From NCBI GenBank assembly GCA_963760735.1, contig CAVXEB010000004.1:519995-583994 (forward strand): a DNA stretch of 64,000 bases, in the 5' to 3' direction. This DNA is from an uncultured Chloroflexia bacterium. Lineage in GTDB: Bacteria; Chloroflexota; Limnocylindria; Limnocylindrales; CSP1-4. Of this stretch, positions 8,375 to 40,055 are shown piece by piece. The first letter of the stretch is position 1. Each line of letters starts with the position of its first letter. Under the pieces are notes generated by a model. The model made no database searches. It saw only the letters and a program-made list of their open reading frames with translations, and was not told the DNA's origin. The position numbers were made by a program, and so were the translations under genes.

Positions 8375-10493
8375 GGCCTCCGTTCGGAGAATTGGCTCCG
8401 GCGGCAGGACTCGAACCTGCGACCAAGCGCCTCGTCGGTCGCGGTTTGCCGCACGGCCGGCGTGATCGAATGCGTTCGCGACGCCATCGCTGCGTTCCCG
8501 CGGACTTGCGTTCTAGCGCCAGTCGATACCAACGAACTTCGACCGGCTCGCGGACTCCCTTGAGGGTCAACGCGCGCGGCTCTGAGATCTTGAACCGGGT
8601 TCGCCCGGCCTGCTCGAGGACGTCGCTGGTGACCAGGATCTCCTGACCGGACGCCGCGCCGCCGACGCGGGCGGCGATGTGCACGCCCCGACCGCGATAG
8701 TCACGGCCATCCGCGCGTCGCCTCGGCTGCGTGCAGACCGATCCGCACCGGACGGGGCGAACCCGTGCTCGCGGCGGTGTCGCGTCAGACCGCCGCTGGA
8801 TGTCGACCGCGCATTCGATCCCCTCGCCAGCGCTGTCGAAGGTCACGAAGAAGCCGTCGCCGGTGCTGTTGACTTCCTCGCCGCGGTGACTTGCGAAGGC
8901 CGACCGAAGCTCTCTGTTGTGCCACGAGAGAAGCTCGGCCCACGCCTCGTCGCCCACGAGTCCGACCAGGTCCGTCGAGGTGACGATGTCGGTGAACATG
9001 AACGTCCTGGCGACTCGCGCCGTTGAGGCCGCGGGCCCCTGCTCCTGCCCGAGCAGCACGTCCACTCGCTGCAGGTCGAGCGTCGCGCCCAGCCGCTCGA
9101 AGACGGCCCGAGCCGCTCGGAGGTCCATCCGGGCCGTCGCCTGGATCGCCCTCGGCGGCGATCGCTTCGGCGTAGCTGAAGCCGAGCTCGCGCGCTCTCG
9201 TAGGGCAGATCGTTTTCCATCCACAGCCGCCACGATCGACCGAGGATCGGGGACGCCTCCGAAGGCCGGTCCTCCCCAAGCAGCAACTCGCCCTTCGCCA
9301 TCAGGGCGCCGCCCTCGAACAGCGGTCGCTTGTACCCCGCCGCGATCGACTCGAGCTCTTCGACAGCGCTGCGCGCAGCGTCCAGGTCGCCGACGGGCAA
9401 GGGCAATGTCGATCGCCGCGGGCAGGAGACGTCCCCGCGTGGCCTGATCCACCGGACCCTCGCCCGTCGTTGTCGCAGCCAGCGACCGCTCGATCGAGCG
9501 CCAGGCATCGTCGAGCTCGCCGCGGGCCAGGTGAAGAAGCGCCATGCCTGGCTGCCCGTCATCACCGAGCTCGTACGCGCGCTCGAGGGCATCGGCCGCG
9601 CCCTGCAGGTCGCCCATCCGAAGCCGGATCTCCCCGATCTCGTGGTGGGCGAATCCGAGGCTGTCGTTCAGGCCGAACTGCTGGAGCTCTTCGCAGGCCT
9701 GACGCGCCTCCAGCTCGGCCTCCGGCCATTGGCCGCGGAGCATCTTCAGCTCCGCTCGGTGAACCCGGCAGACGCCCGGATATCCGCCCACTCCCTGACG
9801 GCGCATCCAGCGCTCGCCCTCGTCGGCCCACTGGCCCGCGCGCTTCAGATCGCCGATGTTCCGACAGGCGGCGATCGTGTTGCACAGGATGTCGCTCGCG
9901 ACCCGGAGACCGAGCTGGCCGGAGGTCGCCGCTGCCGCCGCCTCATCGAGAAATGCCAGACCCTCCGGAATGTTGCCCTGGTGCATCTCGCCGTAGCCCT
10001 TGAAGCTCGTCGCCATGAACTGCACGTCGGCGTTGCCGTGCTCCCTGGCCACGGCGATCGCCCGGTCCGCGTGGGCGAGGCCGTCCACCATCCGATGGTC
10101 GAGCATGGCACTCATGCCTGCGAACAGATGGAGCCAGGCGTGCATCCCCGACTCGGGCGTGCCCTCGAGGAGACTCGCAGCGCGCCCCAACCACCCTGCG
10201 CCGACCGATGGCGCCTGACGGCGGAAGAACATGTATGCGAGAAGAAAGGCCGCGCCTGCAGCTTCGATCGGTCGACCGGCCTCCACGTAGGCCGTGAACG
10301 CCCGCTCGAGCATGTCGGACGCCTCATCGGGCTTGCCCACCCACCAGGCGGCCTCGCCCATCCGCTCGAGGTCGTCGGGCGACAGGCCACCTTCGCGGTC
10401 GGCCGCAGCGAATGCCTCCAGCGCCTCCGTCCAGGCGTGGCGCTTGATGGCGTCCCTGCCCAGCTCAATTGAACCGGCCGCCGCGGAATCCAT
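8229..10493 (-). pseudogene. TPR-repeat + class III adenylate/guanylate cyclase (CHD) protein. Its reading frame is broken by two compensating frameshifts (~9400, ~9150), and there is no stop after the CHD.
   Basis: N-terminal TPR-like region (MDSAAAGSIELGRD..., start ~10490), then a good frame-B segment (LPVGDLDAARSAVEELESIAAGYKRPLFEGG..., ORF 8843-9592). It then returns to frame A for the CHD (RTFMFTDIVTST ... GDGFFVTF ... RGRGVHIAARV ... EPVEVRWYRL, ending ~8520). The downstream 96 Arg-rich codons run through the tRNA-like fragment. Confidence 0.45.
8393..8437 (-). other. tRNA 3'-half-like fragment: T-arm + acceptor 3' strand + CCA, with no foldable 5' half. Candidate att core (copy A).
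   Basis: rc = ggtc-GCAGG-TTCGAGT-CCTGC-cgccgga-g-CCA. No complementary 5' acceptor strand lies downstream. A near-identical copy is at 40011-40055, including a compensatory T-stem change. Confidence 0.4.
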
Positions 10494-10566
10494 CTGTGCC
10501 TCGCCGTAATCGAGCAACTGCCGTCCGATTATCTGCGTGGTCCGCAACCCGCTTGAGGCGCCGGTC

Positions 10567-10960
10567 TCAGGTGGGCGCAGTCCGGCGCAGGCGCTCGAGC
10601 TCGCGTCGGAGACGCTTGCTGGGCCGGCCCTCCCCACGTACGGGCGAGATCGCAGGCCCCGTCTGCCGCACCACCGGCGGGCTGTGGTCCACGTAGCAGG
10701 TCGCGGCGACGGCGGCCCCGACACGCGACTCGATCGGCCGAACGACATCCACGAGACGCACGCGATCGGCGATGAACGCCTCCACTCGATCGCCTGCCCG
10801 AACCTTCGTCGACGGCTTCGCCGGTAATCCATTCACGCTGACGTGACCGCCATCGCACAATCGGGTCGCGATCGGGCGGGTCTTCGCGAGGCGCACCGCG
10901 CACAGCCAGCGATCGATGCGAACCTCGTCGCCAGCACGGGGATCGGTCACGCCTTCTAGG
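10567..10960 (-). CDS. S4 RNA-binding domain protein, Hsp15-like
   Basis: VRIDRWLCAVRLAKTRPIATRLCDGGHVSVNGLPAKPSTKVRAGDRV (S4 fold) followed by a basic RP..KR.RR tail; start codon uncertain. Confidence 0.45.
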
Positions 10961-11074
10961 ATCGCACGGGCCGAGAAGGCGCCGCAGCGCCCGCCACGGC
11001 GGGTGGTTTGCGTCGCGCAAGCCATCGGTGCCCGGCCAGGTCTCTCCCCAGTCGGAGCATGGGGCGGCCAGCCA

Positions 11075-13408
11075 TCAACCGTCGCGTCGAACCCGAGCTT
11101 CATTCCCCTGCAGTGGCGCAACCTTCGGAAGGAACGGCTCGAGGAGTCCGGCTTCGACGGCCTGGTCCACGGCGTCGCCGCGGGTCGCGGCGCCCAGCTT
11201 TCCGTAGATGGCGAGCACCTGCGACTTCACCGTCGTCTCTTTGACGCCGAGTCGCTGGCCGATCTCCTTGAAGGAGAGGTAGTAGGGCAGGAACGACAGC
11301 ACCCGGAGCTCCGCGACCGTGAGGCTCGTGGCACCCCTGCCCCTCCCGGGTGCCAGGGGGGCTACGGTCGCCCCGAGCGACCTCACATCGGCTGGCAGGA
11401 CGCCAAGGTCCGGGCGATCGCGGATCACGCCACTCGCCTGCGCGATCAACGCGCGCGCGCCAGTCGGGTCGTCGACCGCGAGGTGGGCGTGGGCGAGCGC
11501 GACGAGGAATTGGACGGCCCCTGCCGGGGCCGCGGCGGTCAGGAGGGGTCGCAGGCTCGTCGCGCGAGCGAGCTCGCGACGCGCCCCGGCGATGTCACCG
11601 CGGTGGATCATCAGCCTGATGCGGACGGTGCGGGACGGAACGCTCGAAAGGTAGCCGTCGATCGGGGGTGGCGGGTCGATGGCTTCGCTGTCCGCGATCA
11701 GGGCCGCGGCGACAGCCCAGTCGCCTCGTTCGACGGCCACGAGCGCGCGGTGTCCGAGCACGCAGTACAGGATCGCGAAGTGGGCCGACGATCGCGCAGC
11801 GGCGACGGCGTCGACCAACGCGGTGTCCGCGCCCGATTGATCACCGAGCGTGAGGCGCGCGAAGGCCAGCTGCCATAGCGCGAAGTCCCGCCAGGAGCCA
11901 GTCTCCCCTTCAAGCTCCACCGCTCGAGTGGCGTTCGCAAGGGCGTCGTCGGCCCCGTCGCGAGCCATGCCGGCTCGGAGCATTGCCCGCCCGGCCTCGA
12001 ATGAGGCGGTGCCGTCGGGCGGCCGGCCCTCGAACGTGCCGCGCTCGGCGATATCCGCGAACCGGATCGTCCCCGCGACATCGCCAGCGGCGATCTCCTC
12101 CCAGGCTGCCAGCACGGCCAGCCAGGGGCGTACCTCGAGCGCGCCGACACCCAGGCGCCTGGCCCAGGCTCGAATCGTCGACCGATAGCCGGACCAGTGA
12201 AATTGGACGAAGCCGTTGCCCACCAGCACGGCGGCGAGGTCCGTGTCGCCAGCCGCGAAGGCGTGATCGATGGCGCGATCGACGATCTGATTCGCCTGGT
12301 ACCACGCTGCGGCTCGCCGATGGAGGGTGGGCACCAGGTCGGGCTCGCGGACCGCGAGCTCCCTTTGGAGGAAGTCGCGCAGGAGCGCATGGTAGCGGTA
12401 TGACCCGCCATAGTCGTCCATCAGCAGCGTCGAGCCTGCCAGGCGCAGCAGGACATCGGTCGAACCTTGTCGATCCGCCACTACGTCGCACAGGGGCGCG
12501 GGCAGTTGGTCGAGGATCGAGGTCCGGGTCAGGAACGTGATCTCGGCCGCGGAGCGTCGCTCGAGCAACTCCGATCGCAGGTAGTCGTCAACGAGGTGGT
12601 CGGTGCCCGCGTCGAGACCCCCTGGATCCGCACTCGCTCCGAGCATCGCCAGCGCGAGCAACGCCGGCCATCCCTCCGTCTCGCGGGTCAGGCGCGCTGC
12701 GGCGTCCACCGGCAGCCGCAGGCCGAGTTCGCGGCCCAGCCCGACGGCCTCGCGCTCGTCCATTGCCAGCTCAAGGGGACCGATCTCGAGCACCGAACCG
12801 GCGGCGCGCCAGCGGGCCAACGGAAGCCGCGTCCGGTCGCGTCCCGCGATCGCCACCTGCGACCGTTCCGGCAGGTGCTCGATCAACTCCGCAAGGATGT
12901 CGAGACACGCCCGTGAGGTGATCTGGTGCCCGTCGTCGATGGCGATCCGGAGCCGTTCCGGGGGAAGGGAGATCGCTGCGAGCAATCGCCCGACGACCGT
13001 CCGGTGCGACATCGTGGCTGATGCGATCGCCGTGAACAGCTCCGCGCCCACCGGCTCGAGGCGATCGATCGCCAGCGCGAGGTCATTGAGGAATACGACC
13101 GGGTCGTTGTCGCTGCGGTCGGCCGTCAGCCAGGCAACAGGCCGCGAATCTTCGGTCGCCCACTGGACGAGGAGGCTCGTCTTGCCGTAACCCGGCGGTG
13201 CCACGATCGAGATCGCGGGTCGGTTCCGATCCGACCGCAGATGGCGCAGCAACCTCGTGCGGCGTAGCGTCCCCACGTGCCTGCGTGGCAGGACGAACCT
13301 GGCCTCGAGGAGCGGACCTGGGCGGCCTTCATCTCGGGCGAGGTTTCCACCTTTGATCTCGACAGCCGAGGCGGAGGCAGGTGCGGAGGCAGATGCGGAG
13401 GTGGGCAT
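11075..13408 (-). CDS. LAL/MalT-type LuxR-family regulator (AAA/NB-ARC ATPase + TPR + C-terminal LuxR HTH)
   Basis: IVAPPGYGKTSLL (Walker A) ... C-terminal LTVAELRVLSFLPYYLSFKEIGQRLGVKETTVKSQVLAIYGKLG. Confidence 0.75.
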   Translation of the reverse strand: MPTSASASAPASASAVEIKGGNLARDEGRPGPLLEARFVLPRRHVGTLRRTRLLRHLRSDRNRPAISIVAPPGYGKTSLLVQWATEDSRPVAWLTADRSDNDPVVFLNDLALAIDRLEPVGAELFTAIASATMSHRTVVGRLLAAISLPPERLRIAIDDGHQITSRACLDILAELIEHLPERSQVAIAGRDRTRLPLARWRAAGSVLEIGPLELAMDEREAVGLGRELGLRLPVDAAARLTRETEGWPALLALAMLGASADPGGLDAGTDHLVDDYLRSELLERRSAAEITFLTRTSILDQLPAPLCDVVADRQGSTDVLLRLAGSTLLMDDYGGSYRYHALLRDFLQRELAVREPDLVPTLHRRAAAWYQANQIVDRAIDHAFAAGDTDLAAVLVGNGFVQFHWSGYRSTIRAWARRLGVGALEVRPWLAVLAAWEEIAAGDVAGTIRFADIAERGTFEGRPPDGTASFEAGRAMLRAGMARDGADDALANATRAVELEGETGSWRDFALWQLAFARLTLGDQSGADTALVDAVAAARSSAHFAILYCVLGHRALVAVERGDWAVAAALIADSEAIDPPPPIDGYLSSVPSRTVRIRLMIHRGDIAGARRELARATSLRPLLTAAAPAGAVQFLVALAHAHLAVDDPTGARALIAQASGVIRDRPDLGVLPADVRSLGATVAPLAPGRGRGATSLTVAELRVLSFLPYYLSFKEIGQRLGVKETTVKSQVLAIYGKLGAATRGDAVDQAVEAGLLEPFLPKVAPLQGNEARVRRDG

Positions 13409-13733
13409 GCGGACTACCGGCTGGCGGCGCGGCCCCAGTGACCGAGCCCGCCCGTCAAGGCTGGCATCCTAGCGGGACAACCACACCCGGTCCAATGGCG
13501 TCGCCGGTCACCGCGCCGGACGATGTCGTGACCGGCCCTGGTGACCGTTCTTCCTCCGACGGGGAGGATGCGGCCAGCTGGCGTGCCACCTAGCGTGCTG
13601 GTGATCTCTACCAAGCCGTCGGCCGACGTCAGGCGCACCGCAGAACGACGGAACCAGTCGGCGAACACAGGATTGGGTGGTCTGCTGCGTGCGCCGATCC
13701 CGATCGAACGGCGCCAAGCAGAGGAAATTCCCC

Positions 13734-14270
13734 ATGCGCAATCGCATTCACCTTCTTGCCCCAGTGCTCGTCTTGAGCGTTGTCGTCGCAGCGTGCGGTG
13801 CTGCTTCATCGCCGACCCCAGGAACGTCAACAACGCCGGCCACGCCGGCCACGCCGGTCGCGTCGTTGGTGCCCAGCGCTTCAAGCGCGTCCGCGACGCC
13901 GGAGTCATCGTCGGTGCCCACGTCTTCGGGCGCGTCCGCCATCTGCGCCGACGTGGCCCGTCTCCGCACCTCCCTGACGGCGCTCACCAATCTCCAGCTC
14001 GCCAGCGTCGGCGTGAGCGGCGTTACCGTGGCACTGACCGACGTCCAGTCGGCCGCTCAGGCCCTCGCCGTGTCGGGCCACGATCTCGTCGGCCTGCCGG
14101 TCAGCAATCTGCTCGCCTCCGTCCAGGCGCTCCAGACCACTCTCACCGGGCTCGGCACTCAGCCGAGCCTTGGCGCTGCGCTCGTCGCCGTCAAGGCGGC
14201 GATCGAGCAGATCAAGGCGTCAGCCGCCGATGTCGAGTCCGCGCTCGGGAATGCCTGCCCGGCCGATTAG
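13734..14270 (+). CDS. Secreted lipoprotein, hypothetical
   Basis: MRNRIHLLAPVLVLSVVVAACG lipobox; AGGAAA RBS 8 nt upstream of the ATG; Ser/Thr/Pro-rich linker. Confidence 0.5.
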   Translation: MRNRIHLLAPVLVLSVVVAACGAASSPTPGTSTTPATPATPVASLVPSASSASATPESSSVPTSSGASAICADVARLRTSLTALTNLQLASVGVSGVTVALTDVQSAAQALAVSGHDLVGLPVSNLLASVQALQTTLTGLGTQPSLGAALVAVKAAIEQIKASAADVESALGNACPAD

Positions 14271-14499
14271 TGACGCGCTCTCGCGCGCAGCTTCCGATGA
14301 AGAGTCCGCATTCGCCGCGATTCAACGAGCGACGGCCCTGTCGCTTGAGCATCGGCAAGATGAGTCGATCCGTTTGCCGCGGGTCGACCGCCTTCCGTCA
14401 CTCCGTCGACTCCTCTCGCCCGAAGGACGTGTCTCTCGCCGCCGAGGGTTCCTGAACGCGGGTGAGCGGCCTGGACGCGGCTCGAGTTGCAGCGCGGGG

Positions 14500-15801: not shown

Positions 15802-15977
15802 GGGTCCTCCTCGGTGTACTCGCGATCGTCAGCTCCCGGGGGTGGTCAAGGCAATCCGTCCTGCCACGATCTGACCTCGTCCGGTGCGACCCCCGGAGCG
15901 CACCGATTCGACTCGAACGTGTCTCGCAGCCGGCTTCCCTGCTCCCACCTGATGGTGTCGCCAGCCGGCGGCGCGAT

Positions 15978-23419: not shown

Positions 23420-23860
23420 CGAGCCTGGCCCGGAGCAGCCGAAGATCGGGCCGTTCGTGCGTGAAAATGGCTCCGGCGGGCGGGAGCCGGCCGTGTACTG
23501 AATCTGCAGGGGCCCGCGGCGAGCGTTATCCCGCTCGCCCACCCCGGTCGTTCGCGTGAGTGGCTTGCGGCGGCGGCGTTCGAGTGCGCCCGGTGCCACC
23601 AGGTGGTCGAACGACGGTCGCCGGTCCAGCGACACTGCCTGGAATGTCGCGCCTCCCTGAAGGGATCCAGGAGCCTTGCAGCCGTGGCGCGCGCAAGGGG
23701 TTCGGGGCATCCTGCGCGCCCGCTACGTGACCCGAGCTGACCCGCGGGACACTGAGGTCGGAGGCTCAAGAGGGATAGCCCCGCCACCACCGACCTTCCG
23801 ATCACGATGCGGCTCGCCGAGCCTCCGGAGCCCTTCGACTGGCTGCGGAGCGCATGACGC
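23420..23860. repeat. Repeat-family copy 1: 3' part of a Zn-ribbon gene + ~100-bp conserved leader (uORF ...DLPITMRLAEPPEPFDWLRSA) preceding a small LuxR gene
   Basis: Aligned by eye to 46900-47320 (longest copy) and 31591-31680. Confidence 0.6.
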
Positions 23861-24144
23861 GCCGGCCTCGCTACCGGGCCGAACGCGCCACGGACCGTGA
23901 GGTCGGGGTGGTCGCAGCCGTGCTGCTGACCGGGTCGGAGAAGGCAGCCGCCCACCGCCTCGGCCTGGCGCACTCGACCGTGAAGCACCACCTGGCGAAT
24001 GCCCGGTCGAAGGTGGGGGTGGCGACGACCGCACAGCTCGTGTGGATCCTAGCCCCGCGTCTGCCCGAGCGAGAGGACTCCGATCATCAGAACGAGACGC
24101 CTGAACGTCGGTCTCCGGCGCCGGATCTCTCCGGATCAGGCTGA
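23854..24144 (+). CDS. Small single-domain LuxR/GerE-type HTH regulator (cassette copy 1)
   Basis: EREVGVVAAVLLTGSEKAAAHRLGLAHSTVKHHLANARSKVGV; its ATG overlaps the uORF stop (gcATGAcg). Confidence 0.55.
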   Translation: MTRRPRYRAERATDREVGVVAAVLLTGSEKAAAHRLGLAHSTVKHHLANARSKVGVATTAQLVWILAPRLPEREDSDHQNETPERRSPAPDLSGSG

Positions 24145-29540: not shown

Positions 29541-30050
29541 ATGACCACGACCCGGGTGGCCGCCCCGACGGCGTCCTGGCGCAACCGGATCACCGGGTCC
29601 GGTGAGGAGGCGCCCGACCAGCTCCTGGCCAACCCCGCGAACTGGCGGATCCATCCGAAGGCGCAGCAGGACGCGCTCGCTGGCGCGCTCGATGCGGTGG
29701 GCTGGGTCCAGCAGGTGCTCGTCAACCGGAGCTCCGGCTTCGTCGTCGACGGCCACGCTCGTGTCGCGCTCGCGCTCAGCCGCGGCGAGCCGACCGTACC
29801 GGTCCTGTACGTCGACCTCGCGCCCGAGGAGGAGGCGCTCGTTCTCGCGACCCTGGACCCGATCGGCGCGATGGCCGGCCGCGACGACGAGAAGCTCAAG
29901 GCCCTCCTGGCAGACGTCACAGTCGACGACGCCGGGCTCCTCGCCTTGCTCGGCGACCTCGGCGGCCACGAGCCGAAGGCCGGACTCACCGATCCCGACG
30001 AGGTCCCCGAGCCGCCCGAGGAGCCGTCCGTCAAGCCGGGCGAGCTCTGG
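29541..30050 (+). pseudogene. ParB-like nuclease N-terminal domain, truncated by the 450-bp duplication
   Basis: NPANWRIHPKAQQDALAGALDAVGWVQQVLVNRSSGFVVDGHARV ... PGELWRLG; the sequence diverges into repeat-derived junk from ~30040. Other members of this family usually continue as a DNA methylase domain. Confidence 0.5.
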
Positions 30051-30495
30051 CGGCTCGGTAGCGCCCGGTTCATCGACAGGCTGCCGTGCGAGCGCAGAGG
30101 CACGTTGGACTCCTCCTTGAGCCGGGCGACCACGTCGACGGCGTCGCCGCGCACGAGGGTCGCGTCGGGCCAATCGAGGGGTTCTTCGAGCGTCGTCGAG
30201 ACGACCGTGGTCGGCAGGTTCCTCAGCGCGCCGTTGACCGGGTCGACGTCCTTCAAGAACCCGGTTCGCGGGCCAATGGACTGCATGAACATCCGAATTG
30301 TGCTCGCGCCGAGGACCAGCCGCTGCGGCTCCCGATAGAGGGCGAGACGGCGGTCGAGGAACTCCGGCCCCTGCTTGCCCCAGTAACCGCCCCAATCGCC
30401 TTCGGCGCCGTAGGAGCCGTAGCCGTCGAGGGTCGAGAACACGTCGTAGGTGTAGAGAGCGGTCAAGATGGTTTCCTCGCGTTTCCGGCCTAACT
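30040..30495. repeat. ~450-bp segmental duplication of 46000-46445 (DHFR-family gene 5' end plus ~25 bp upstream)
   Basis: Near-identical nucleotide sequence. Boundaries are agcgcccggttcat(c/t)gacagg at the low end and gtttcctcgcgtttccgg at the high end. Confidence 0.6.
30055..30466 (-). pseudogene. 5' fragment (~137 codons) of a DHFR-family (RibD C-terminal-like) gene. It duplicates 46009-46420.
   Basis: MTALYTYDVFSTLDGYGSYGAEGDWGGYWGKQGPEF ... SLSMNRAL is identical to the start of the 45836-46420 gene, then diverges. Confidence 0.55.
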
Positions 30496-30611
30496 GCTCG
30501 CGCCGACGCTTTCCGACTGGTCGTGGTCACCCGAGGCGCCCAAGCTCGGAGTGACGTGACTCGGGGCCCGTGGGAGTAGCATCACCGCCTCGCGGGAGGA
30601 GGTCGCTGTCG

Positions 30612-31478
30612 ATGTCGACATCGGAGGCTCGGGTCTTCGACCCAGTCGCATACAAGAACACGACCCGCGAGCAATGGCAGACGGCCGCGGAGGCCTGGCA
30701 CCGGTGGGGGCCGACGCTGGAGGCCTGGCTTGGCCAAGCGACCCAGGCGATGCTTGACATGGCTGGCGTCAAGGGCGGCGCTCGGGTCCTTGACGTGGCC
30801 GCGGGTGCGGGCGGGCAGACGGTCGCGGCGGCCCGACGGGTCGGGCCGAGCGGGACAGTTCTTGCCACCGACATCTCCCCTGCGATCCTGGGATATGCGC
30901 AGGCTGAGGCCTCGACGGCCGGACTGTCGAACGTGACGACCCGGGTGACGGACGGCGAGGACCTCGAGGTGGAGCCGGGATCGTTCGATGCCGTGATCTC
31001 GCGCCTCGGACTGATGTATTTCCCCGACCTGCAAAAGGCACTCCGGGAGATGCGCCGCGCATTGCGCGAGGGCGGACGGGTCGCGGCCATCGTCTACTCG
31101 ACGCCCGAACGCAATCCGTTCAACTCGATCCCGATGTCGATCATCAGGCGACGTGCCGCGCTACCGCCGCTGCTGCCCGGACAGCCTGGGCCGTTCCGCC
31201 TCGGGGCGCCGGGCGTGGTCGCGGCCGCCTTGGAGACCGCCGGCTTTCATGACGTCGAGACCCGCCTGGTCGACTCGTTACTTCGGCTGACGTCAGCCGC
31301 CGAGTGTGTTCGATTCGAGCGAGAGTCGTTCGGAGCGCTGCGCCAGATGCTCTCCGGCTTGTCCGAGTCCAAGCGCAACGAGGCCTGGGTCGAGATCGAA
31401 ACGGCGTTGGCCACGTTCGAGGGTCCACACGGTTTCGTTGGGCCGTGCCAGCTGGTCGTCGCCGCAGGGATCAGGTAG
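30612..31478 (+). CDS. Class I SAM-dependent methyltransferase
   Basis: GGGAGGAGG RBS; VLDVAAGAGGQTVAAARRVGPSGTVLATDIS (motif I) ... ISRLGLMYFPD. Confidence 0.65.
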   Translation: MSTSEARVFDPVAYKNTTREQWQTAAEAWHRWGPTLEAWLGQATQAMLDMAGVKGGARVLDVAAGAGGQTVAAARRVGPSGTVLATDISPAILGYAQAEASTAGLSNVTTRVTDGEDLEVEPGSFDAVISRLGLMYFPDLQKALREMRRALREGGRVAAIVYSTPERNPFNSIPMSIIRRRAALPPLLPGQPGPFRLGAPGVVAAALETAGFHDVETRLVDSLLRLTSAAECVRFERESFGALRQMLSGLSESKRNEAWVEIETALATFEGPHGFVGPCQLVVAAGIR

Positions 31479-31590: not shown

Positions 31591-31930
31591 AGAGGCATAG
31601 CCCCGCCACCACCGACCTTCCGATCACGATGCGGCTCGCCGAGCCTCCGGAGCCGTTCGACTGGCTCAGAAGCGCATGACGCGACGGTCCCCTCGCGACG
31701 GCGCCGATCGCGCGACCGAGCGCGAGGTCGGCGTGGTCGCGGCTGTTCTTGTTGCCGGGTCGGAGAAGGCGGCCGCCCACCGCCTCGGTCTCTCGCACTC
31801 GACCGTGAAGCACCACCTAGCGAACGCGCGATTGAAGGTCAGGGCGGCGACCATGGCGCAGCTCATCTGGATCCTGGCGGCCCGGCTGCCGGAGCCCGCA
31901 AGCCGAGTGGAGACGGACGAGTAGCGATCC
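31591..31930. repeat. Repeat-family copy 2 (leader/uORF + small LuxR gene)
   Basis: gaggcatagccccgccaccaccgaccttccgatcacgatgcggctcgccgagcctccggagcc... is near-identical to 23770-23860 and 47231-47320. Confidence 0.6.
31676..31924 (+). CDS. Small LuxR/GerE-type HTH regulator (cassette copy 2)
   Basis: EREVGVVAAVLVAGSEKAAAHRLGLSHSTVKHHLANARLKV. Confidence 0.55.
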   Translation: MTRRSPRDGADRATEREVGVVAAVLVAGSEKAAAHRLGLSHSTVKHHLANARLKVRAATMAQLIWILAARLPEPASRVETDE

Positions 31931-32545: not shown

Positions 32546-32651
32546 CGGCGCTCCTGCTCGCAACCCTTCACCTCCGTGACGAGATTGAAGGCGTATGGCG
32601 ATGATGCTGGCGTATTCCTTCATTGTCGATGCGCACATGAAGGGTGGCCGG

Positions 32652-34198
32652 TCAGGACGTCACCGGATGGTCGCCGCGTGCCGCGGGCTCGAGCCGCAGC
32701 ATCGACCACGAGACCGGGGGCAGCGTCACCGGGTGCAGGCCGTCGATCGCGGCGGCCGGCGACACGCGCCGAGGCTCGACGCGGGTTGGGGCGTCGGTCG
32801 TGTTCCGCGCGTGCGGATCGTCGTCAGCCAGGACGACGTGCTCGACGATCTGCATGGGGCCGAGGCCATCCAGGGCGAGTTCGAGCGTGACCGGCTCCGC
32901 GGCATCGCGGTTCACGAGGAACACCGACACGGCATCCGAGGCCGCGTCGTACGTCGCGACGCCGTCCACGGCGGGGACGGGTCCGTGCTCAGCGGTGTCG
33001 ACCATCGGCACCTCGAGCACCAGCGGCACCACGGTCCCCCTGGCGTGGCGGGCGGTCAGCGAGAACGGGAAGAACGTGGTCTGGCGCCATGCCGGCCCGC
33101 CCGCCTCCGCGTGGATCGGCGAGATCACGTTGACGAGCTGGGCGAGGCAGGCGCACGTCACCCGGTCCGCGTGGCGGAGCAGCGAGATCAGCAGGGCGCC
33201 CACGACGACGGCGTCGGCGACCGAGTAGTCGTCCTCGGCCAGGCTTGGCGCCACCGGCCAGTCGCCCGGGAGTGGCTGCGCCTGGAAGCGGCGCAGGTAC
33301 CAGACGTTCCATTCGTCCACCGAGACCTGGATCCGCTTGGCGCTGCCCAGCGCGTCACCGACGCTATCGGCCGCCTCGACCACCGCGTCGATGAACCGGT
33401 CCAGCACGACGCCGGAGGCCAGGAAGCTGGCGAGATCACCGGCCTCGCCCTCCTCGAAGTACGCGTGCAGGGACACGTAGTCGACGAGGTCGTAGGCGTG
33501 CTGAAGGACCGTCCGCTCCCACTCGATGAAGGTGGGCATCCAGCCGCCCGAGCTGCCGCAGGCGACCAGCTCGAGTCCGGGGTCAACCATGCGCATCGCT
33601 CGCGCGGTCTCGGCGGCGAGGCGCCCGTACTCGCCCGCGGTCTTGTGCCCGAGCTGCCACGGCCCATCCATCTCGTTGCCCAGGCACCACATCCGAATGT
33701 CGTACGGCGCGGCGCTCCCGTTGACGGGGCGCTCGTCCGACCGCGTCGTGCCGCCGGGTACGTTCGTGTACTCGAGGAGCGCGACCGCCTCGTCCACGCC
33801 GTGCGTCCCGAGGTTGACCGCCAGCATCGGCTCCACGCCTGCCCGCGCGGCCCAGCGCACGAACTCGTCGAGGCCGAACTCGTTGGTCTCCGTCGAGTGC
33901 CAGGCGAGGTTCAGCCGGCGCGGTCGCGCCGCGGGAGGTCCCACCCCATCCTCCCAGCGATAGCCGGATACGAAGTTGCCGCCTGGATAGCGCACGATGG
34001 TGACGCCCAGCTCGCGGACGAGGTCAAGGACGTCCTCGCGGAACCCTGCGGCGTCGGCGCGTGGGTGGCCGGGCTCATAGATGCCGGTGTAGACGGACCG
34101 GCCCATGTGCTCGACAAAGGAGCCGAAGAGGCGGCGATGCACCTCGCCGATGGGTTCGCCGATCCGGATCGTCGCTCTGGCCTTCACCAATCGATCCA
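32652..34198 (-). CDS. GH51 alpha-L-arabinofuranosidase
   Basis: FGSFVEHMGRSVYTGIYEP ... IVRYPGGNFVSGYRWEDGVGP ... MWCLGNEMDGPWQLG (catalytic acid/base Glu context); GTG start ~34186-34198. Confidence 0.65.
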
Positions 34199-34200
34199 CA

Positions 34201-34680
34201 TCAGGCGCCTCCCGGCGATGCGGCCTTGATGGCGGGGTGCGTGTCGATGATCCCGGCCAACGCGAAGAACCCGACGTATGAGATGCCGTAGATGCCGACC
34301 CGTCCGTTGTGGTTCGGCACGTGCGCGAGCAGCCAGTCGATCGTGTCGCGCGTGTCGGTGCTCTCGTCGACGTCATCCGGGCCCCTGGCCGGCAAGTGTG
34401 GCCGCACGTGCGTGAACTTGCCCTCCGACATCAGCCGTCCGCGTACGTCCTGCCGCACGAAGATGTAGCGCGCCTCGAGGAGTGCCCCGGTCTGACGCCC
34501 GATCGGCACGTCCTCGTCCGGTCCGTACGGCCCAAGCCCGAACGGCGTCCGCATGAGCAGGATCGGGTACGGGCGGGCGTCGTCCTTCGGCACCAGGACG
34601 GACGTGAAGAGCCGAACGCCGTCTCGCATCGGGATCCGGTGCTCGTACTTCGTGTAGTGTCCGCGGACATCGAACGTCAT
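34201..34680 (-). pseudogene. N-terminal ~160-aa fragment of a CocE/NonD (S15 X-Pro dipeptidyl-peptidase-like) hydrolase
   Basis: MTFDVRGHYTKYEHRIPMRDGVRLFTSVLVPKD ... GIYGISYVGFF then stop; full-length members of this family are ~550 aa. Confidence 0.4.
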
Positions 34681-34810
34681 CGGTTCTCCCCAACTGATGG
34701 CGGGCCTCGCGGCGCGCCGCAAGGATAGGCGCCGCGGGGGGGTAGCTGTCGCGCAGAACGGGGATGCTCACGACAGACGCGAGCACGGCGAGGAGACAAC
34801 GAGCGTGCGC

Positions 34811-35590
34811 ATGCCGAAGCCGCTGACTGGATCAGTTCTCTCGCGGCTGGCCGCGGAGGCGCTGGCGACCTACCTCGGCCAGGCGGAGGCGTTCGAGCTC
34901 GCGATGCACCCGGGGTGTTGCCTGGTGCTCTCCGGCGAACCCGTCGCCGACTTGAACTACCTCGTGGCAGGCCGAGGCGCCGCGGATGGTGATCACTTTG
35001 CCGCAGCCTGCATGAGCGGCATCTCGCGCGGCCTCCCGTTCCTTGCCATCGTCTTTCCGGAGGCCGGTGACAGTGTCGAGCGGACCGCGGGCGACCTCGG
35101 GCTCGTCCACGTCGTGGATTTTCCGTTCATGGTGCGCGACGGCGTCGCGATCGAGCCCGAGGGAAACGACTCCGTCATCGTGCGGCGCGCGGACGGGCCT
35201 GGCGATGCGGAAGCCAACGTGACCGTGCTGAGTTCGGCATTTGCGATCCCTGAGGATCCCGTCCGGCGCGTGCTGCCGGCGTCACTGGCTGACAGCCCGA
35301 ACGTCGACATCTTCCTTGCCTCGATCGACGACGAAGTGGTCGGAACCGTCACCCTCATTCATCAGGGCGACACATCCGCTATCTGGTCGATGGCAACCGA
35401 CGCTGGTCGTCAGCGTTCCGGGATCGGCCGGCGGCTGTTGTCGACGGCGATGGCTGAGGCTCGGACCCGGGGGACAGACCGCTTCTACCTGGGTGCGACG
35501 CCGGCTGGCTATCGGCTGTACGAGAGCCTTGGCTTCACGACCCGTACCACAGCGAGGGTCTGGGCATCGGGCGAGACGCACCAGGCCTGA
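34811..35590 (+). CDS. GNAT-family N-acetyltransferase
   Basis: VVGTVTLIHQGDTSAIWSMATDAGRQRSGIGRRLLSTAMAEAR (acetyl-CoA binding motif A). Confidence 0.6.
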   Translation: MPKPLTGSVLSRLAAEALATYLGQAEAFELAMHPGCCLVLSGEPVADLNYLVAGRGAADGDHFAAACMSGISRGLPFLAIVFPEAGDSVERTAGDLGLVHVVDFPFMVRDGVAIEPEGNDSVIVRRADGPGDAEANVTVLSSAFAIPEDPVRRVLPASLADSPNVDIFLASIDDEVVGTVTLIHQGDTSAIWSMATDAGRQRSGIGRRLLSTAMAEARTRGTDRFYLGATPAGYRLYESLGFTTRTTARVWASGETHQA

Positions 35591-35714
35591 CCTGGGTGTT
35601 CGGGAGAACAGGCCCTGCGCACAGGGGGCGACCGAGGAGCGCGAAACGGAAGTTTCCGGTGACCTCCCGGAGCACCGCTCGACGATCATGTAGGTTTGGT
35701 CGGGGCGAGAGGAG

Positions 35715-36266
35715 TCAGGGCGACGATTTCGATGGCGCCTTAGCGGTGCGTGCCGACTTCCTTGCGTCACCCCTAGGGAGCCCGCGCTTGGCCAGGGCGG
35801 CGGCGAAGCCCTCGATGTCCTCGACTGTCAGATAGAGGGCCGGGACTCGGACGCCCAGCTGAGAGACTGGTTCCCTGAAGTCGATCCGAACGCCTCCCCG
35901 ATTCGTGCCGCCGAATGAGGTCGTGGTCGCGGACGCTAAAGCGGACGCCGATCGCGGTGATCCATCGCCAGGGGCCCATCGATGCGCCAAGAGGCGAGGT
36001 TGCTCGTCGGTGTTGCGGACCATCCGGCTCCCGATAACACTCGACGATGCGGTCGCGGCAGTCGTCGGGCTCCTCGGCTCCGGAGAGAGGCCCGTCCGCT
36101 GAATCGCGGACGGTCCAGCTCGAACTGCCCAGTAACCTGTCGGCCCATTCGTTCGGCACCTAACGGCTAACGCGCTCGGCGCGCACACCCTGCATGACCG
36201 CGCTGCGAGCGGTGGGACGAGGCGACCGCCGATGTAGCCGCTGGTGCCGACGACGAGGATCCGCAT
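35715..36266 (-). pseudogene. Gene remnants: N-terminal 25 codons of an NAD(P)-binding epimerase-like protein joined to non-coding-like sequence and a glyoxalase-like C-terminal fragment
   Basis: MRILVVGTSGYIGGRLVPPLAA then Arg/Ser junk; ...GVRIDFREPVSQLGVRVPALYLTVEDIEGFAAALAKRG. Confidence 0.25.
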
Positions 36267-36284
36267 GACGTCCCTTGTCGAGAC

Positions 36285-37154
36285 CTACGCCAGGAACCGG
36301 TCGATCACGGCCGCGGTCTCATCCGGCTGCTCCAGCTGGGGGAGATCCCCGGCGTGCTCGATCGTGATCCGTTCGAGGGTGCCGTTCGCAGCGACGAGCG
36401 CTTCCGCGGCCGCGGGGTCGGTGAAGCGCGGATGATCCCCGAAGACGAGAAGCGTCCGGTTCGAGAGGCGCCGGTAGGCGCCCTCCGCTCGAGGATCGTT
36501 GAGTAGCCCGGCGACGAACGCCAGCGGAGCCCGGTAGGCACCTGGCTGCTGGCAGCTTCGCCAGCAGTACCGCTCGTACTCCGTTGGGACTTGCTCCGGA
36601 TCCGCGAAGGTCTGCCGAAGGAACCAGCGGATCACCTGGCGCCGAGCGAGGACCGCGAAGAGCAGCCGCCCGATCCCCGTCAGGCGAAGGAACCGGTGGA
36701 TGTTCCGGGAGGTTCGCCCAGCGCTGCCCTTGAAGCGGCCGAATCCGGTCGGACTGATCAGGACGATGCCGCCGAACCGCTCCGGATGCTCCGCGGCGGC
36801 GACGACGACATACTGCCCCGGCAACGAGAGCGCGACGACCTCGATCGAGGCCTCGCCCGGCTGCAGGGCGGCAAGCCGGATGCGCTCGAGCTGCTCGCCG
36901 AAGAGAGCCCAGCCGTACGGCGCGTCGGGCCGATCCGATGTGCCGAATCCGAGCCAGTCGACGAGCACGACCCGCCGGTGTTCGGCCAGCCGCGACGCCA
37001 GCGGCGCGAGCTCGATGCCCGAACCGGCCGCGTTGAAACTATGCAGGAGCAAGACCGTCCGACCCTCGCCCAGCTGGTAGGCGCTGACCCGGCCGGCAGC
37101 GGTCTGGACGTCAAACGGGACACCCGCGACGGGAGCGGGCAGGGACTGCGTCAT
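36285..37154 (-). CDS. Alpha/beta-hydrolase fold protein; last gene of the HeR operon
   Basis: TVLLLHSF ... VVLVDWLGFGTSDRP ... IVLISPTGFG; ATGA overlap with the upstream regulator. Confidence 0.6.
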   Translation of the reverse strand: MTQSLPAPVAGVPFDVQTAAGRVSAYQLGEGRTVLLLHSFNAAGSGIELAPLASRLAEHRRVVLVDWLGFGTSDRPDAPYGWALFGEQLERIRLAALQPGEASIEVVALSLPGQYVVVAAAEHPERFGGIVLISPTGFGRFKGSAGRTSRNIHRFLRLTGIGRLLFAVLARRQVIRWFLRQTFADPEQVPTEYERYCWRSCQQPGAYRAPLAFVAGLLNDPRAEGAYRRLSNRTLLVFGDHPRFTDPAAAEALVAANGTLERITIEHAGDLPQLEQPDETAAVIDRFLA

Positions 37155-37999
37155 GCCCGTGCCCTGAGCGCTTCGATCAGGTCGCCGAGCCCTCGCGGAT
37201 CCGCGACCCACCCGTCCGCACCGAGATCGAGCGCCACGCGTTCGTCCGGAACCGCGTTTCCGCCGACCAGGCGCGGAACCGACGGTCGTTCCCGACGCGC
37301 GGCGGCCAGGAGGCGTCCGGCTGCCGGACGCCTCTCGATGTCGACGACACTCACGACGACCGCCGCGAGAGATCCCGCATCGCGCATGGCAGCGACAAGG
37401 GACGCCGTCGGCGTGTCGGGGCCCAGGTTGAGGACCTCGTATCCGGTGTCGGTAAGGATGTCGGCGAGCATCGCGACCCCGAGTCCGTGACGCTCACCGG
37501 GCGGCATCGCCACGATGACGACGCCCTTCTTGCGGCCCGCGTGCACGAACCGGGGGCCCAGCCGTCCGATCAGCGTCGCCGCCACACTGCTCGCGAGATG
37601 CTCCTGGTCGACGGAGACGCGACCCGATTTCCACGACGCCCCGATGGAGTGCAGCGACGGCGCAAGGATGCGGACATGGATCTCGCCTGGCTCGAATCCC
37701 GAGGCCATGGCAGCCTCGATGACCTGCCAGCTACCCGCGACGTCACCACCGAGCATCCGCGCCTGAAGTCGTTCCTGCCAGATCGATACTCGCGGATGGC
37801 TGCCCCCGCGACGGCGGCGACCACGGTCCGGCGTTGTTGTCGCCTGCTCGAGATCGGCAGGATCGACCAACCACGTGCCGCCGATCTTGCGGGCCGGCAG
37901 GATCCCCAGCCGGACGCGACGGTAGACCGTCATGTAGTGGACGCCGAGGCGATCGGCCGCTTCGTGCAGGCTCAGATGGTGGGACGGGTCCGGCGGCAT
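37151..37999 (-). CDS. CarH/LitR-like photoregulator: MerR-type HTH + cobalamin (B12)-binding domain
   Basis: LSLHEAADRLGVHYMTVYRRVRLGILPARKIGGTWLV (MerR HTH); GKKGVVIVAMPPGERHGLGVAMLADILTDTGYEVLNLG with the E-x-H-x-x-G B12 lower-ligand motif; its start overlaps the HeR stop. Confidence 0.6.
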   Translation of the reverse strand: MPPDPSHHLSLHEAADRLGVHYMTVYRRVRLGILPARKIGGTWLVDPADLEQATTTPDRGRRRRGGSHPRVSIWQERLQARMLGGDVAGSWQVIEAAMASGFEPGEIHVRILAPSLHSIGASWKSGRVSVDQEHLASSVAATLIGRLGPRFVHAGRKKGVVIVAMPPGERHGLGVAMLADILTDTGYEVLNLGPDTPTASLVAAMRDAGSLAAVVVSVVDIERRPAAGRLLAAARRERPSVPRLVGGNAVPDERVALDLGADGWVADPRGLGDLIEALRARA

Positions 38000-38805
38000 C
38001 AGCCCGCCAGGGTTCCTGCGAACACCTGCCAGGCGAGCGCCGACTTCGCGACCAGGCTGAGCATGAAATAGGCCCTCTCGCCGAAGACGTACGCCTTCCA
38101 GGGACCGATCCGCCGGTACTGGAGCCACATGTTAAGCGCGAAGATGTTGAAGAAGACGAAGAGCGAGACGAAGATCGCGTAGACGAAGGCGGGCGGCTCG
38201 GCAGTGCTACCGGGCGACCAAAGGTAGACGCCGACGGCCAGCCACGGCGCGATGCCCACGACGCACCCGAGCCAGAACGGCCACAGTGAGCCTCCCGGTC
38301 GCTCGTATCGTTCCTGGACCGCTCCGAAGAAGATCATGGCCGCGTTGGCCGCGAAGATGCCGATCAGCGCCGCGACATCGCTGATCCCGGTGAGCATCGC
38401 GATGAGCACGATCATCACCGACGATGAGAGCGAGTACTCGGCCCAGCGAAAGTAGTTGTGCTGCGCAGTCAGGCCGGAGGTGTAGCGCCCGAAGACGCCG
38501 GGCAGCACCACGAGCCAGTGGAAGACGGCCGACAGCAGCAGGAACAGGGCGACGCCCCACGCCACGGAGACTTCGAACAGGGTGGTCGGCGCGCCGGCCG
38601 CAGTGCCCGGCGGCCCCTCCATGAACGTCGCCGTGACCGGCAGCGCGAAGGCCGTGGCGAGTGCGAGGACGGCGACGGCCTGGGCGGCATGGATGAGGCC
38701 GAGTCCGAGGTTCCAGCGCCGCAGGGAGGCAGCCCGCGAAGCCGGGAGCTCCACCATCGGGGTGGAGATGAGCTGGTTGCTGGCGATCACGATGTTGTCC
38801 TTCAC
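37999..38805 (-). CDS. Heliorhodopsin (inverted-topology retinal protein)
   Basis: FRWAEYSLSSSVMIVLIAM (counter-ion Glu helix) and GERAYFMLSLVAKSALAWQVFAGTL (Schiff-base Lys). Both align almost residue-for-residue with heliorhodopsin 48C12 as I recall it. Confidence 0.8.
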   Translation of the reverse strand: MKDNIVIASNQLISTPMVELPASRAASLRRWNLGLGLIHAAQAVAVLALATAFALPVTATFMEGPPGTAAGAPTTLFEVSVAWGVALFLLLSAVFHWLVVLPGVFGRYTSGLTAQHNYFRWAEYSLSSSVMIVLIAMLTGISDVAALIGIFAANAAMIFFGAVQERYERPGGSLWPFWLGCVVGIAPWLAVGVYLWSPGSTAEPPAFVYAIFVSLFVFFNIFALNMWLQYRRIGPWKAYVFGERAYFMLSLVAKSALAWQVFAGTLAG

Positions 38806-38813
38806 GGGACGAG

Positions 38814-38846
38814 GGTGGGGCCTGGAGGAGAGACAGGCCCCACCCT
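38814..38846. terminator. 10-bp perfect inverted repeat (gggtggggcc ... ggccccaccc). It could be a fasciclin-gene terminator or an operator at the HeR promoter.
   Basis: Located in the 65-bp gap between the fasciclin stop and the HeR start. Confidence 0.3.
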
Positions 38847-38870
38847 CGGGTGGAATGGGTCGCGGGAGGG

Positions 38871-39452
38871 TCAGTTCGAGGGCGGCAGGATGACCTTGTC
38901 GATGACGTGGATGACGCCATTCGACGCCATCAAATCGGGCGTCACGACCTTGGCGCTGTCGTTCAGATAGACGGTTCCGTCCTTGACGGAGATGGCGACG
39001 GGCGATCCTTCGACCGACGTGGCTGACGTGAGTCCGACGACCTTGTCAGCGGTGACTGAACCCGAAACGACGTGGTACAGCAGGACCTTCTTGAGCGCGG
39101 CTGGATCCTTGAGGAGGCCGTCGAGCGTGCCGGCCGGCAGTGCGGCAAAGGCCGCATCGGTCGGTGCGAACACGGTGAAGGGACCCTTGCCCTGGAGCGT
39201 CTCCACGAGGCCGGCAGCCTGGACCGCCGTCAGCAGGGTCTTGAACGAGCCAGCCTCGGTGGCGGTCTCGACGATGTCCTTGGCCATGGCAGCAGCCGAA
39301 GCCGAAGGCGCGATGCTCGGCGATGTGGCAGCGGTGGATGCCGGGGTCGCCGTGGGAGCGGTGGTGGGCGCCGCGCTCGGTGAGGCCGCGCTGGAGCAGG
39401 CCGCGATCGCGATGGCGAGCGCTGGCACGAGGAGGGCGATGGATTGTTTCAT
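38871..39452 (-). CDS. Fasciclin (FAS1) domain lipoprotein
   Basis: [21 protein letters not shown] lipobox; [14 protein letters not shown] ... [13 protein letters not shown]. Confidence 0.7.
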
Positions 39453-39500
39453 GACTAATGACTTCCCTTCAGGCTTCGGACTGGATGTTGTCGGGTCGGG

Positions 39501-40024
39501 TTGACTCGACATGCCGAATTATTTAGCACTAAATCCAGATTGTCAAGCACGGATCTGAGGGAGTGCCTGCTGGACGAAGGCATGACCTACGACAAGATCG
39601 TCGCCGCAACCGGCATCTGCGAGAACAAGTCCAGCCTGGCCGCGATCCTCGCCAACCCGATCTATCGCGGCGTTCGCGTCTTCAACCGTGCTCACGCAGC
39701 GCCGGCCCGAGAGCTTCCGAGCGGATCAACGTCGAGATCGAGGCGGTTGCGGCCGAGCTTGAAGCGGCCCAGGCGAGAATCGCCGAGCTGGACCAGGCGG
39801 AGCGGCCACTCCGGATCACAACGAAGCTCGTTCGGCCGACGATCGACGACATGAACGGGATCCTCGACCACGCGCCGTTGGCGACGCGGGTGGAGTGGGT
39901 CCGAGACCTGTTCGAGCGGATCGACGTCGACAGTCGCGACGAGAAGGCTGTCGCCGTCTGGAGGGCCGCGACCGACGAGGGTGTTAACCGGTCGGATTCC
40001 GTATACGAGTGGATCCGGCGGTAG
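39501..40024 (+). pseudogene. Large serine recombinase C-terminal fragment, frameshifted (~39700). It abuts tRNA-like fragment B.
   Basis: Frame 3: LAAILANPIYRGVRVFNR; frame 2: INVEIEAVAAELEAAQARIAELDQAERPLRITTKLV ... VEWVRDLFERIDVDSRDEKAVAVW. Confidence 0.4.
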
Positions 40025-40055
40025 GACTCGAACCTACGACCAAGCGCTCCGGCCA
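40011..40055 (-). other. tRNA 3'-half-like fragment, copy B (candidate att core)
   Basis: rc = ggtc-GTAGG-TTCGAGT-CCTAC-cgccgga-t-CCA. It is a direct repeat of 8393-8437 with compensatory T-stem changes. No 5' half could be folded from the downstream sequence. Confidence 0.4.

Follow-up and report, generated by a model that had tools for sequence, protein, structure and literature searches.

A probable tandem array of decayed integrative elements at a tRNA-Asn hotspot in a Chloroflexota chromosome, with the remnant of a serine recombinase linked to the tRNA tip

Background

Two 45-bp direct repeats that resemble the 3' half of a transfer RNA (tRNA) gene lie 31.6 kb apart in a 64,000-nucleotide stretch of a Chloroflexota chromosome (contig CAVXEB010000004.1; the whole stretch is referred to below as the window). 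Do they mark the two ends of one integrated element? An earlier note, made from the sequence alone, took the repeats for possible attachment (att) scars of an old, eroded island, one of them abutting a decayed recombinase. We believe that the tRNA-derived att scars and the adjoining large serine recombinase (LSR) are well supported, while the single island, its description as "old, eroded", a second recombinase fragment and an HNH gene, which were part of the same interpretation, are not. The reading that we prefer, at a probability of about 65%, is that decayed elements, no fewer than three or four of them, stand in tandem in the window at a hotspot in the gene for tRNA-Asn(GTT). The left repeat is called copy A and the right one copy B; loci used for comparison are designated by L and proteins by P.

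Results

Origin of the repeats

Read on the minus strand, 8393-8437 and 40011-40055 do match a T arm, a 3' acceptor strand, a discriminator base and CCA, as had been stated: GCAGG-TTCGAGT-CCTGC-CGCCGGA-G-CCA in copy A and GTAGG-TTCGAGT-CCTAC-CGCCGGA-T-CCA in copy B. Comparison of the window with itself by blastn aligns 8393-8430 with 40010-40047 (92% over 38 bp); the 21-mer GGTTCGAGTCCTRCCGCCGGA occurs twice in the window against 0.01 occurrences expected by chance, and the identity common to the two copies, GCGCTTGGTCG...CCA, extends over about 41 nt. Both copies start at the same tRNA position, about 40, at CGCTTGG, just 3' of the anticodon loop.

An exact scan for the 28-mer GGTCGYAGGTTCGAGTCCTRCCGCCGGA (T arm and acceptor strand), with one genome per species, returned at least 120 genome loci, mostly from Chloroflexota, with some from Alphaproteobacteria and Latescibacterota. 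Of 23 loci scanned, 22 have the 28-mer within a tRNA-Asn(GTT) gene, of which it forms the 3' part; the exception, L021, has it in a fragment about 300 bp 3' of a tRNA-Asn gene. Positions 8389-8429 (41 nt) are 100% identical to a tRNA-Asn fragment in L064. When copy B is aligned with L112, the identity begins exactly at CGCTTGG, and the tRNA in L112 is intact. The compensatory T-stem differences between the copies, noticed earlier, reflect two different functional forms: both variants, GTAGG/CCTAC and GCAGG/CCTGC, exist in real tRNA-Asn genes. Judging by these comparisons, both 45-mers are evidently displaced 3' fragments of tRNA-Asn(GTT), which supports their interpretation as tRNA-derived att scars.

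ARAGORN predicts no complete tRNA at either site. Rfam at the gathering threshold finds nothing at A or B; in E-value mode it gives only a 17-bit tRNA-Sec-like match at copy A and nothing tRNA-like at copy B. A 5' half of tRNA-Asn is found nowhere in the window. ARAGORN also calls a 92-nt tRNA-Arg(CCT) at 1644-1735 (+), inside an ABC-transporter open reading frame (ORF, 3-2495); this call has no Rfam support and is probably a false positive. In L126 and L127, a comparable call (an 89-nt "tRNA-Asp") is made within the S8 peptidase gene.

It could be proposed that the 45-mers, instead of being scars, function as tRNA-like RNA elements, such as mini-helices or 3' tRNA-like tags, considering that their T arms are intact with compensatory changes, that CCA is encoded, and that copy A can be drawn with an anticodon-like hairpin. 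We find this extremely improbable: they match no Rfam family, the sequences upstream of A and B are unrelated, the two T-stem variants are simply those of ordinary tRNA-Asn genes, and copy B continues seamlessly into a recombinase gene exactly as intact tRNA loci do.

The recombinase at copy B

When the window was compared by blast with the 120 tRNA-Asn loci, the tRNA end proved to be contiguous with a homologue of 39.7-40.0 kb in L112, L023, L056, L070 and L108. In these five loci an intact tRNA-Asn gene is overlapped by 12 bp by the end of an LSR gene. In L023 it is a 524-aa ORF on the opposite strand; its product contains YVRVSTEHQ, a motif of serine recombinases, as well as a zinc ribbon rich in cysteine and an extended C-terminal region. 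The protein ends in ...EWLRR, and the stop codon is inside the tRNA. Members of the family carry PF00239, PF07508 and PF13408, in the architecture Resolvase, Recombinase, zinc ribbon, coiled coil.

With the L023 protein as the query, tblastn finds residues 218-271 at 39576-39755 (aligned at 57%) and residues 379-524 at 39617-40021 (E 1.5e-41), and codon periodicity reveals two plus-strand frames at the remnant. Missing are the catalytic N-terminus (about residues 1-217), that is, the resolvase domain PF00239, and about residues 272-400, the zinc ribbon (PF13408) included; the C-terminal 146 residues are kept. The stop codon lies inside copy B: the last codons, W-I-R-R and the stop, are the complement of the tRNA acceptor and T-stem, and the final 12 nt of copy B are the common core of the LSR family described below. 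The ORFs at 39501-40024 taken individually have no Pfam match; their merged translation gives PF07508 at 17.7 bits, a weak score below the cut-off of 21.1.

The remnant protein is near-identical to P0223 and P0238 (residues 218-271 nearly identical to P0223), and the DNA is 94-97.5% identical to LSR genes at metagenome loci. Compared with L133, it has a 479-bp internal deletion and a truncated 5' end. The remnant is thus a true member of the LSR family and a dead copy, because residues 1-217 are gone while full-length relatives have the resolvase domain. The term "old, eroded" does not suit a gene of such identity, the damage of which consists of one deletion and one truncation; the decay is by deletion and not by age or long divergence. 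The earlier note was right that copy B abuts a decayed large serine recombinase, and the link between the LSR and the tRNA end is conserved in dozens of loci. Neither the remnant nor the LSR has a match in the plasmid and viral collections.

The second recombinase fragment proposed at 31979-32545 (+) found no support: Pfam and PHROG find nothing in it, tblastn does not align it with the LSR, its match to the true remnant reaches only E 0.042, and the LSR loci contain no homolog of it.

Attachment-site classes of the LSR family

A metagenome scan with an alignment of the LSR C-terminal region gave 71 loci. In 30 of them the LSR end overlaps an intact tRNA-Asn gene by 12 bp in a fixed register (the attL class; L201 and L204-206 have the same arrangement), so that the last four LSR codons are in the tRNA acceptor end and the stop is provided by the tRNA. 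The attP class (ten loci) has no tRNA; the LSR is succeeded by TGGCTCCGGCGG and, after it, GCCGGAGCCGGCCGTGTACTGAAT, and diverged versions of this arrangement occur in several further loci. The attP arms, each of 25 nt, are inverted repeats of one another on either side of a central GG and are 76% complementary in L141. The attR class consists of a flank, the core and a tail, with unrelated left flanks, and includes L131, L132, L198, L108 and two sites in the window; in L131 and L108 the attR junction is 2.7 and 4.8 kb, respectively, from an LSR-bearing attL tRNA-Asn on the same contig. Native tRNA-Asn loci without the LSR represent attB.

The 12-bp core TGGCTCCGGCGG is the sole sequence common to attP, attB, attL and attR, as would be expected if a serine integrase crossed over within the acceptor 3' strand. 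The related loci thus exhibit both a palindromic attP around a central dinucleotide and a short common core. On these grounds this LSR family of soil Chloroflexota would integrate into the 3' tip of tRNA-Asn, the tip being restored on integration.

Certain loci deviate from the four classes or add to them. In L188, L198, L140 and L200, tRNA blocks of 49 nt stand next to the LSR; they could be alternative attP forms, tandem junctions or tRNA pseudogenes, and the block of L200 resembles a tRNA with the D arm deleted. The motif TTCTGAGCACGAAT/TGACTCTCA of the L188-type loci was considered for the arms of copies A and B and rejected, being absent from the window at up to 3 mismatches. The loci L200 and L201 have an identical 513-aa LSR (P0236) and identical left-hand element genes; in L201 the neighbor of the LSR is a tRNA-Asn that is intact, accompanied by rhodanese and sigma-70 genes, and in L200 it is a tRNA-Asn without the D-arm region, followed by Kelch-like genes. 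These would be two states of one element in different samples. Some members of the family reside in larger elements; those in L204-206 have a DUF87/TrwB-type ATPase, which suggests that they are conjugative. In P0240 (a JGI contig, 409 aa) the recombinase and zinc-ribbon region of an LSR is joined to the catalytic motif (...HDLRH...LGHS...Y) that tyrosine recombinases have at the C-terminus, suggesting that both integrase types collide at the tRNA-Asn hotspot.

Further junctions in the window

The 12-nt tip of tRNA-Asn occurs on the plus strand at 8393 (copy A), 23468 (J2) and 46934 (J1), and with one mismatch at 40010 (copy B). The orientation is the same for all four tips, the minus strand being the one in tRNA sense. 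At J1 and J2 the tip is fused to an ORF for a zinc-ribbon tail (Table 1), and these sites are attR-type junctions of the LSR family. They belong to repeat modules which begin exactly at the tip and continue into a small HTH gene. J1 is also present in the same-species contig L125. The J2 flank is homologous to the sequence directly after the intact tRNA-Asn in L003.

The 5' arm of copy B aligns with the arm of a second tRNA-Asn fragment in L003 (local score 32, shuffle maximum 16); that fragment is cut at the same position as B and is 5.5 kb from the intact tRNA of L003. Since a homologous arm adjoins the L003 fragment, the B arm would be a conserved att arm rather than a random deletion endpoint. 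A Pfam search of the L003 island ORFs finds no integrase. In L019, a Chloroflexota contig, an intact tRNA-Asn (648-722) is accompanied by a second fragment (3110-3172) 2.4 kb away; the latter reaches back into the anticodon stem and has a mutated loop, CTGTCAA, with FIST-like and cyclase genes in between. This stretch looks like a small island without an integrase.

These observations bear directly on another explanation, a single element of about 31.6 kb that the neighboring recombinase integrated, with A as attR and B as attL, and with a later loss of the tRNA 5' half by B. The two fragments do have the same orientation and the same tRNA start position, the recombinase remnant is just inside B, and the difference in T-stem variants is what one copy from the element and one from the host would show. 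However, two further tips are present in the same orientation at 23468 and 46934, and the first of them is an internal attR-type junction whose flank resembles the sequence 3' of an intact tRNA-Asn elsewhere. The best-supported attP of the LSR family shares only the 12-bp core with the tRNA; the sequence that replaces the 5' half at B is the conserved att arm found also in L003, not a deletion endpoint; the A arm is unrelated to it and has no such homology; and no intact tRNA-Asn closes the array. We therefore consider a single element, as the earlier note had it, improbable, although less so than a functional RNA.

The proposed array

The reading we prefer is that, in a high-G+C Limnocylindria-like chromosome, integrative elements would have piled up in tandem at tRNA-Asn(GTT) and then decayed. 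The attP of the LSR would be inside its own frame, made of LSR codons, the 12-bp core and a zinc-ribbon tail of about 80 aa, where the core would be the sequence common to attP and the complement of the tRNA acceptor/CCA end. Recombination in the core would set the LSR gene against the tRNA, which would supply the stop, and the tail would shift to the far end of the element, attR. The layout from left to right would be as follows: the CLC gene, A, island V (8438-23467), J2, the LSR element Y (23468-40055, composed of the tail, cargo and the LSR remnant), B, island W (from 40056), J1, and a further LSR-type element U (from 46934). The four junctions, all in one orientation, alternate in the order that tandem integration predicts, which fits such an array. 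We presume that J2 is paired with B, and the order of events and the recombinase that made A and B are presumed likewise.

Table 1. Features of the window discussed in the text, in order of position
Feature	Position	Strand	Basis
Copy A: 3' fragment of tRNA-Asn(GTT), from about position 40 to CCA, GCAGG/CCTGC variant	8393..8437	-	blastn, tRNA comparison
Adenylate/guanylate cyclase domain within the long ORF 8229-10832	8501..9071	-	domain evidence
J2 flank, homologous to the sequence directly after intact tRNA-Asn in L003	23428..23467	-	score 21, shuffle maximum 15
J2: 12-nt tip TGGCTCCGGCGG fused to a 90-codon zinc-ribbon tail ORF, attR-type	23468..23740	+	sequence class
Repeat module: tail and small HTH gene (23908-24144)	23468..24076	+	83% identical to 46934-47541
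ParB-like nuclease-domain ORF (29541-30338) and methyltransferase (30612-31478)	29541..31478	+	PHROG (ParB-like ORF)
Third, partial module: HTH part only (ORF 31733-31924), no tip or tail	31591..31924	+	self-blastn
LSR remnant, two frames	39572..40024	+	tblastn, codon periodicity
Copy B: 3' fragment of tRNA-Asn(GTT), GTAGG/CCTAC variant, discriminator T	40010..40055	-	blastn, L112 alignment
5' arm of copy B, with homology to that of the second tRNA-Asn fragment in L003	40056..40122	-	alignment
J1: 12-nt tip fused to an 87-codon zinc-ribbon tail ORF, attR-type	46934..47197	+	sequence class
Repeat module, second copy: tail and HTH gene (47316-47732)	46934..47541	+	self-blastn

Another possibility is that at least two independent scars never arose at a local tRNA-Asn: the fragments, and the LSR remnant with them, would have come in as internal att sites (attP or hybrid junctions) of elements that arrived by other routes, or through rearrangement between the repeated modules. 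The lack of an intact tRNA-Asn nearby favors it, as does the finding that relatives identified by the CLC gene have tRNA-Pro or other content after it, never tRNA-Asn. Moreover, the window has many segmental repeats able to drive rearrangement, and junctions of the LSR with a tRNA fragment lacking the 5' half recur in other loci. Such an origin would leave the common orientation of the four junctions and their predicted alternation without explanation, and the match of the J2 flank to the sequence directly after the intact tRNA-Asn in L003 also argues against it. We regard it as unlikely, yet the most serious of the competitors.

A number of results count against the tandem array as well. The window to its end at 64 kb has neither an intact tRNA-Asn nor a second LSR, and neither is found within about 7 kb past the right end in L126-L128, which are 93-95% identical; the array is thus without a demonstrated head, and the window offers fragments only, not the signature of an intact tRNA gene (tDNA) with its cognate fragment. 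The arm of copy A matches nothing that it was compared with, and the J1 flank has no match. An integrase trace adjoins only B; there is nothing of that kind next to A, J1 or J2, and a search with four queries (tblastn and phmmer) gave no tyrosine integrase remnant able to explain A and B. At the same time, the 49-nt blocks, as possible alternative attP forms, would allow an LSR origin of A and B. A close relative without one of the proposed elements, which would provide presence/absence evidence, was not found. The interval shows no deviation in G+C, being host-like in this check, and its genes are mostly ordinary metabolic and transport ones.

An LSR frame that crosses attP

In most loci of the attP type, the LSR frame remains open past the core, giving a tail of 67-88 codons. 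This tail, about 80 aa, is conserved, with the pattern CxxC-13-CxxC and the consensus WLRRAGAGRVLNRLG..EI.LP.P.RSREWL..ALVEC.RCHQVVER.SPIQRHC..CR, after which there is a basic end. Pairwise differences between tail codons number 1152, 958 and 1791 at codon positions 1, 2 and 3, which fits coding constraint. No Pfam family matches the tail.

At attL, the stop is TAG from the T stem in the GTAGG/CCTAC variant; in the GCAGG/CCTGC variant it is TAA from the anticodon loop, nine codons later, as exemplified by P0220, which ends in ...EWLRRQDSNLRPSG. The frame crosses attP into the tail and stops in the tRNA at attL, so integration would remove the tail: the excised element would encode an LSR of about 600 aa with a C-terminal zinc-ribbon tail, and the integrated one a 524-aa LSR with the stop codon taken from the tRNA. 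Thus, the loci combine an attP within an ORF with a host-derived stop at attL, as integration-dependent truncation implies.

Switching the direction of recombination is normally the job of a separate directionality factor; known factors of this kind act at the LSR coiled coil. It is tempting to propose that the tail is a switch of this kind, dependent on the integration state and built into the LSR; this is a speculative suggestion, and we would sooner doubt it than defend it. Any function of the tail is something that we infer.

Relatives of the window

The same-species contig L125 has the same arrangement (97-99% identical), including copy B, the remnant and J1. For relatives at 93-95% identity, the alignment starts only at about 52.4 kb or 57.4 kb and continues to the right. 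Those found by CLC proteins 85-88% identical have only the MIP and CLC genes in common with the window; after CLC they carry tRNA-Pro or unrelated islands, and they are uninformative on the junctions. The anti-sigma gene next to B is present only in the same-species contig, the next best match being 76% identical, on a 5-kb contig.

The tRNA after the CLC gene in these relatives is tRNA-Pro(TGG) (11738-11814 in L123). In L121 (11975-16576), CLC and tRNA-Pro are separated by an island in which Fic, Replic_Relax and part of a tyrosine integrase are encoded; what follows CLC is thus variable in the lineage.

Surroundings of copy A

Copy A is 19 bp past the stop of the convergent CLC channel gene. 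Its downstream flank was compared with native tRNA-Asn flanks and scored 15 (null 95th percentile 14, null maximum 16); this is borderline, and A was not accepted as a native tRNA end. The ORF 8229-10832 (-) spans copy A and extends into the CLC gene in antisense, and the cyclase gene appears to have lost its own end at this junction. The ORF combines a MalT-like TPR region with the cyclase domain in an unusual order, and the codon periodicity shifts at about 9100-9400; it is probably two fused gene remnants.

Other genes of the interval

The cargo of the proposed element Y includes the ParB-like/methyltransferase pair, an arabinofuranosidase, heliorhodopsin and others. A ParB-like gene had been noticed earlier, and PHROG agrees (ORF 29541-30338, E 6e-23 and 3e-13); an HNH gene had been listed too, and the ORFs scanned contain no HNH domain. 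Between the ParB-like ORF and the methyltransferase there is a 429-bp segment (30060-30488) which is 99.3% identical to 46014-46442, a part of the RibD_C gene 45836-46420; this suggests a recent duplication or gene conversion inside the array. The stretch from the ParB-like ORF through the RibD_C segment to the methyltransferase is debris of the mobile-element type.

Also inside element Y, the heliorhodopsin gene (PF18761, E 1e-96) is directly upstream of, and abuts, a gene for an HTH and B12-binding protein, at 37151-38805 (-). The latter has the architecture of a light-sensor-type regulator, and the adjacent gene is for a fasciclin.

Outside this element, a 312-bp direct repeat (40852-41163 and 45486-45797, 84% identical) flanks the sigma/anti-sigma pair 41690-43935. 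At 16508-18929 (-) there are three tandem paralogous DUF1269 genes, with 16539-17059 and 18337-18857 being 69% identical. Of two P-type ATPases, the first (47742-50447, +) has a C-terminal hemerythrin-like domain, and the second (53438-56219, -) is apparently split into the ORFs 54078-56219 and 53438-54385.

Discussion

The practical lesson of this locus is that a pair of tRNA fragments need not mark the limits of a single island. The LSR family is of interest in its own right. A serine integrase with a precisely conserved tRNA target would occupy a niche given as tyrosine-only in the Islander paper (PMC4383910). If the tail affects activity, its exchange for a tRNA-borne stop would give a serine integrase its direction by new and simple means. 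Integrase tools, too, would find in the short tRNA-tip attB a natural landing site that is conserved: a matching tRNA-Asn 3' sequence occurs in the genomes of several phyla.

Comparison with known systems

Genomic islands integrated at genes for tRNA and tmRNA, displaced fragments and tandem arrays are described in the Islander paper (Hudson, Lau and Williams 2015, PMC4383910). The window resembles these islands in having displaced 3' tDNA fragments in the same orientation, with several elements stacked at one tDNA, and in the identity blocks which run from the anticodon side to the 3' end; the tRNA is restored on integration. It differs in that its array has no intact tDNA at the head, that its only integrase trace is a serine recombinase, and that two sublocations, at about position 40 and at the extreme 3' tip, are used side by side. 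According to the same paper, only tyrosine-family integrases were known to target tDNAs, and serine-family ones were not known to; in a later survey (PMC10484663), tyrosine integrases predominate by a wide margin at tRNA genes. As a decayed multi-element tRNA-Asn hotspot, the feature in the window is of a known kind.

The Int-S prophages of M. abscessus have cores of 5-8 bp, and their integration disrupts ORFs (PMC8092301). The LSR family has the domain architecture of phiC31, Bxb1 and these Int-S recombinases (Resolvase, Recombinase, zinc ribbon, coiled coil); its attP, as in phage-type LSRs, is imperfectly palindromic, spans about 50 bp and is centered on a dinucleotide, and its core is short, 12 bp compared with 5-8 bp. 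Unlike in phage-type LSRs, the target here is the 3' tip of a tRNA gene and not a protein-coding ORF, and it is left undisrupted since attP restores the tip; in addition, the integrase ORF spans attP, and its C-terminus is changed on integration.

A parallel may also be drawn with integration-dependent immunity of mycobacteriophages, the original work on which is said to be that of Broussard et al. from 2013. As in that system, attP is inside an ORF, attB is in a tRNA, and the product is truncated at a stop close to attL. Such immunity, with attP inside the phage repressor gene and a stop codon at attL, is mentioned in PMC8092301. The split gene in our case is that of the recombinase itself, and it is of the serine and not the tyrosine type; the part removed would be a conserved zinc-ribbon domain of about 80 aa instead of a short degradation tag.

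The LSR family has a further analogy with the SSV1-type integrases: attP lies within the recombinase gene, which is split by integration, and the target is a tRNA. The SSV1-type enzymes are archaeal tyrosine integrases, the gene of which is partitioned on integration into a tRNA target. In SSV1 essential parts are separated, whereas the split described here takes off only the C-terminal tail and spares the catalytic and DNA-binding domains. Recent large surveys of LSRs may already list members that target tRNA genes; the family described here would unite a serine integrase, a restored tRNA-tip target and an ORF that spans attP.

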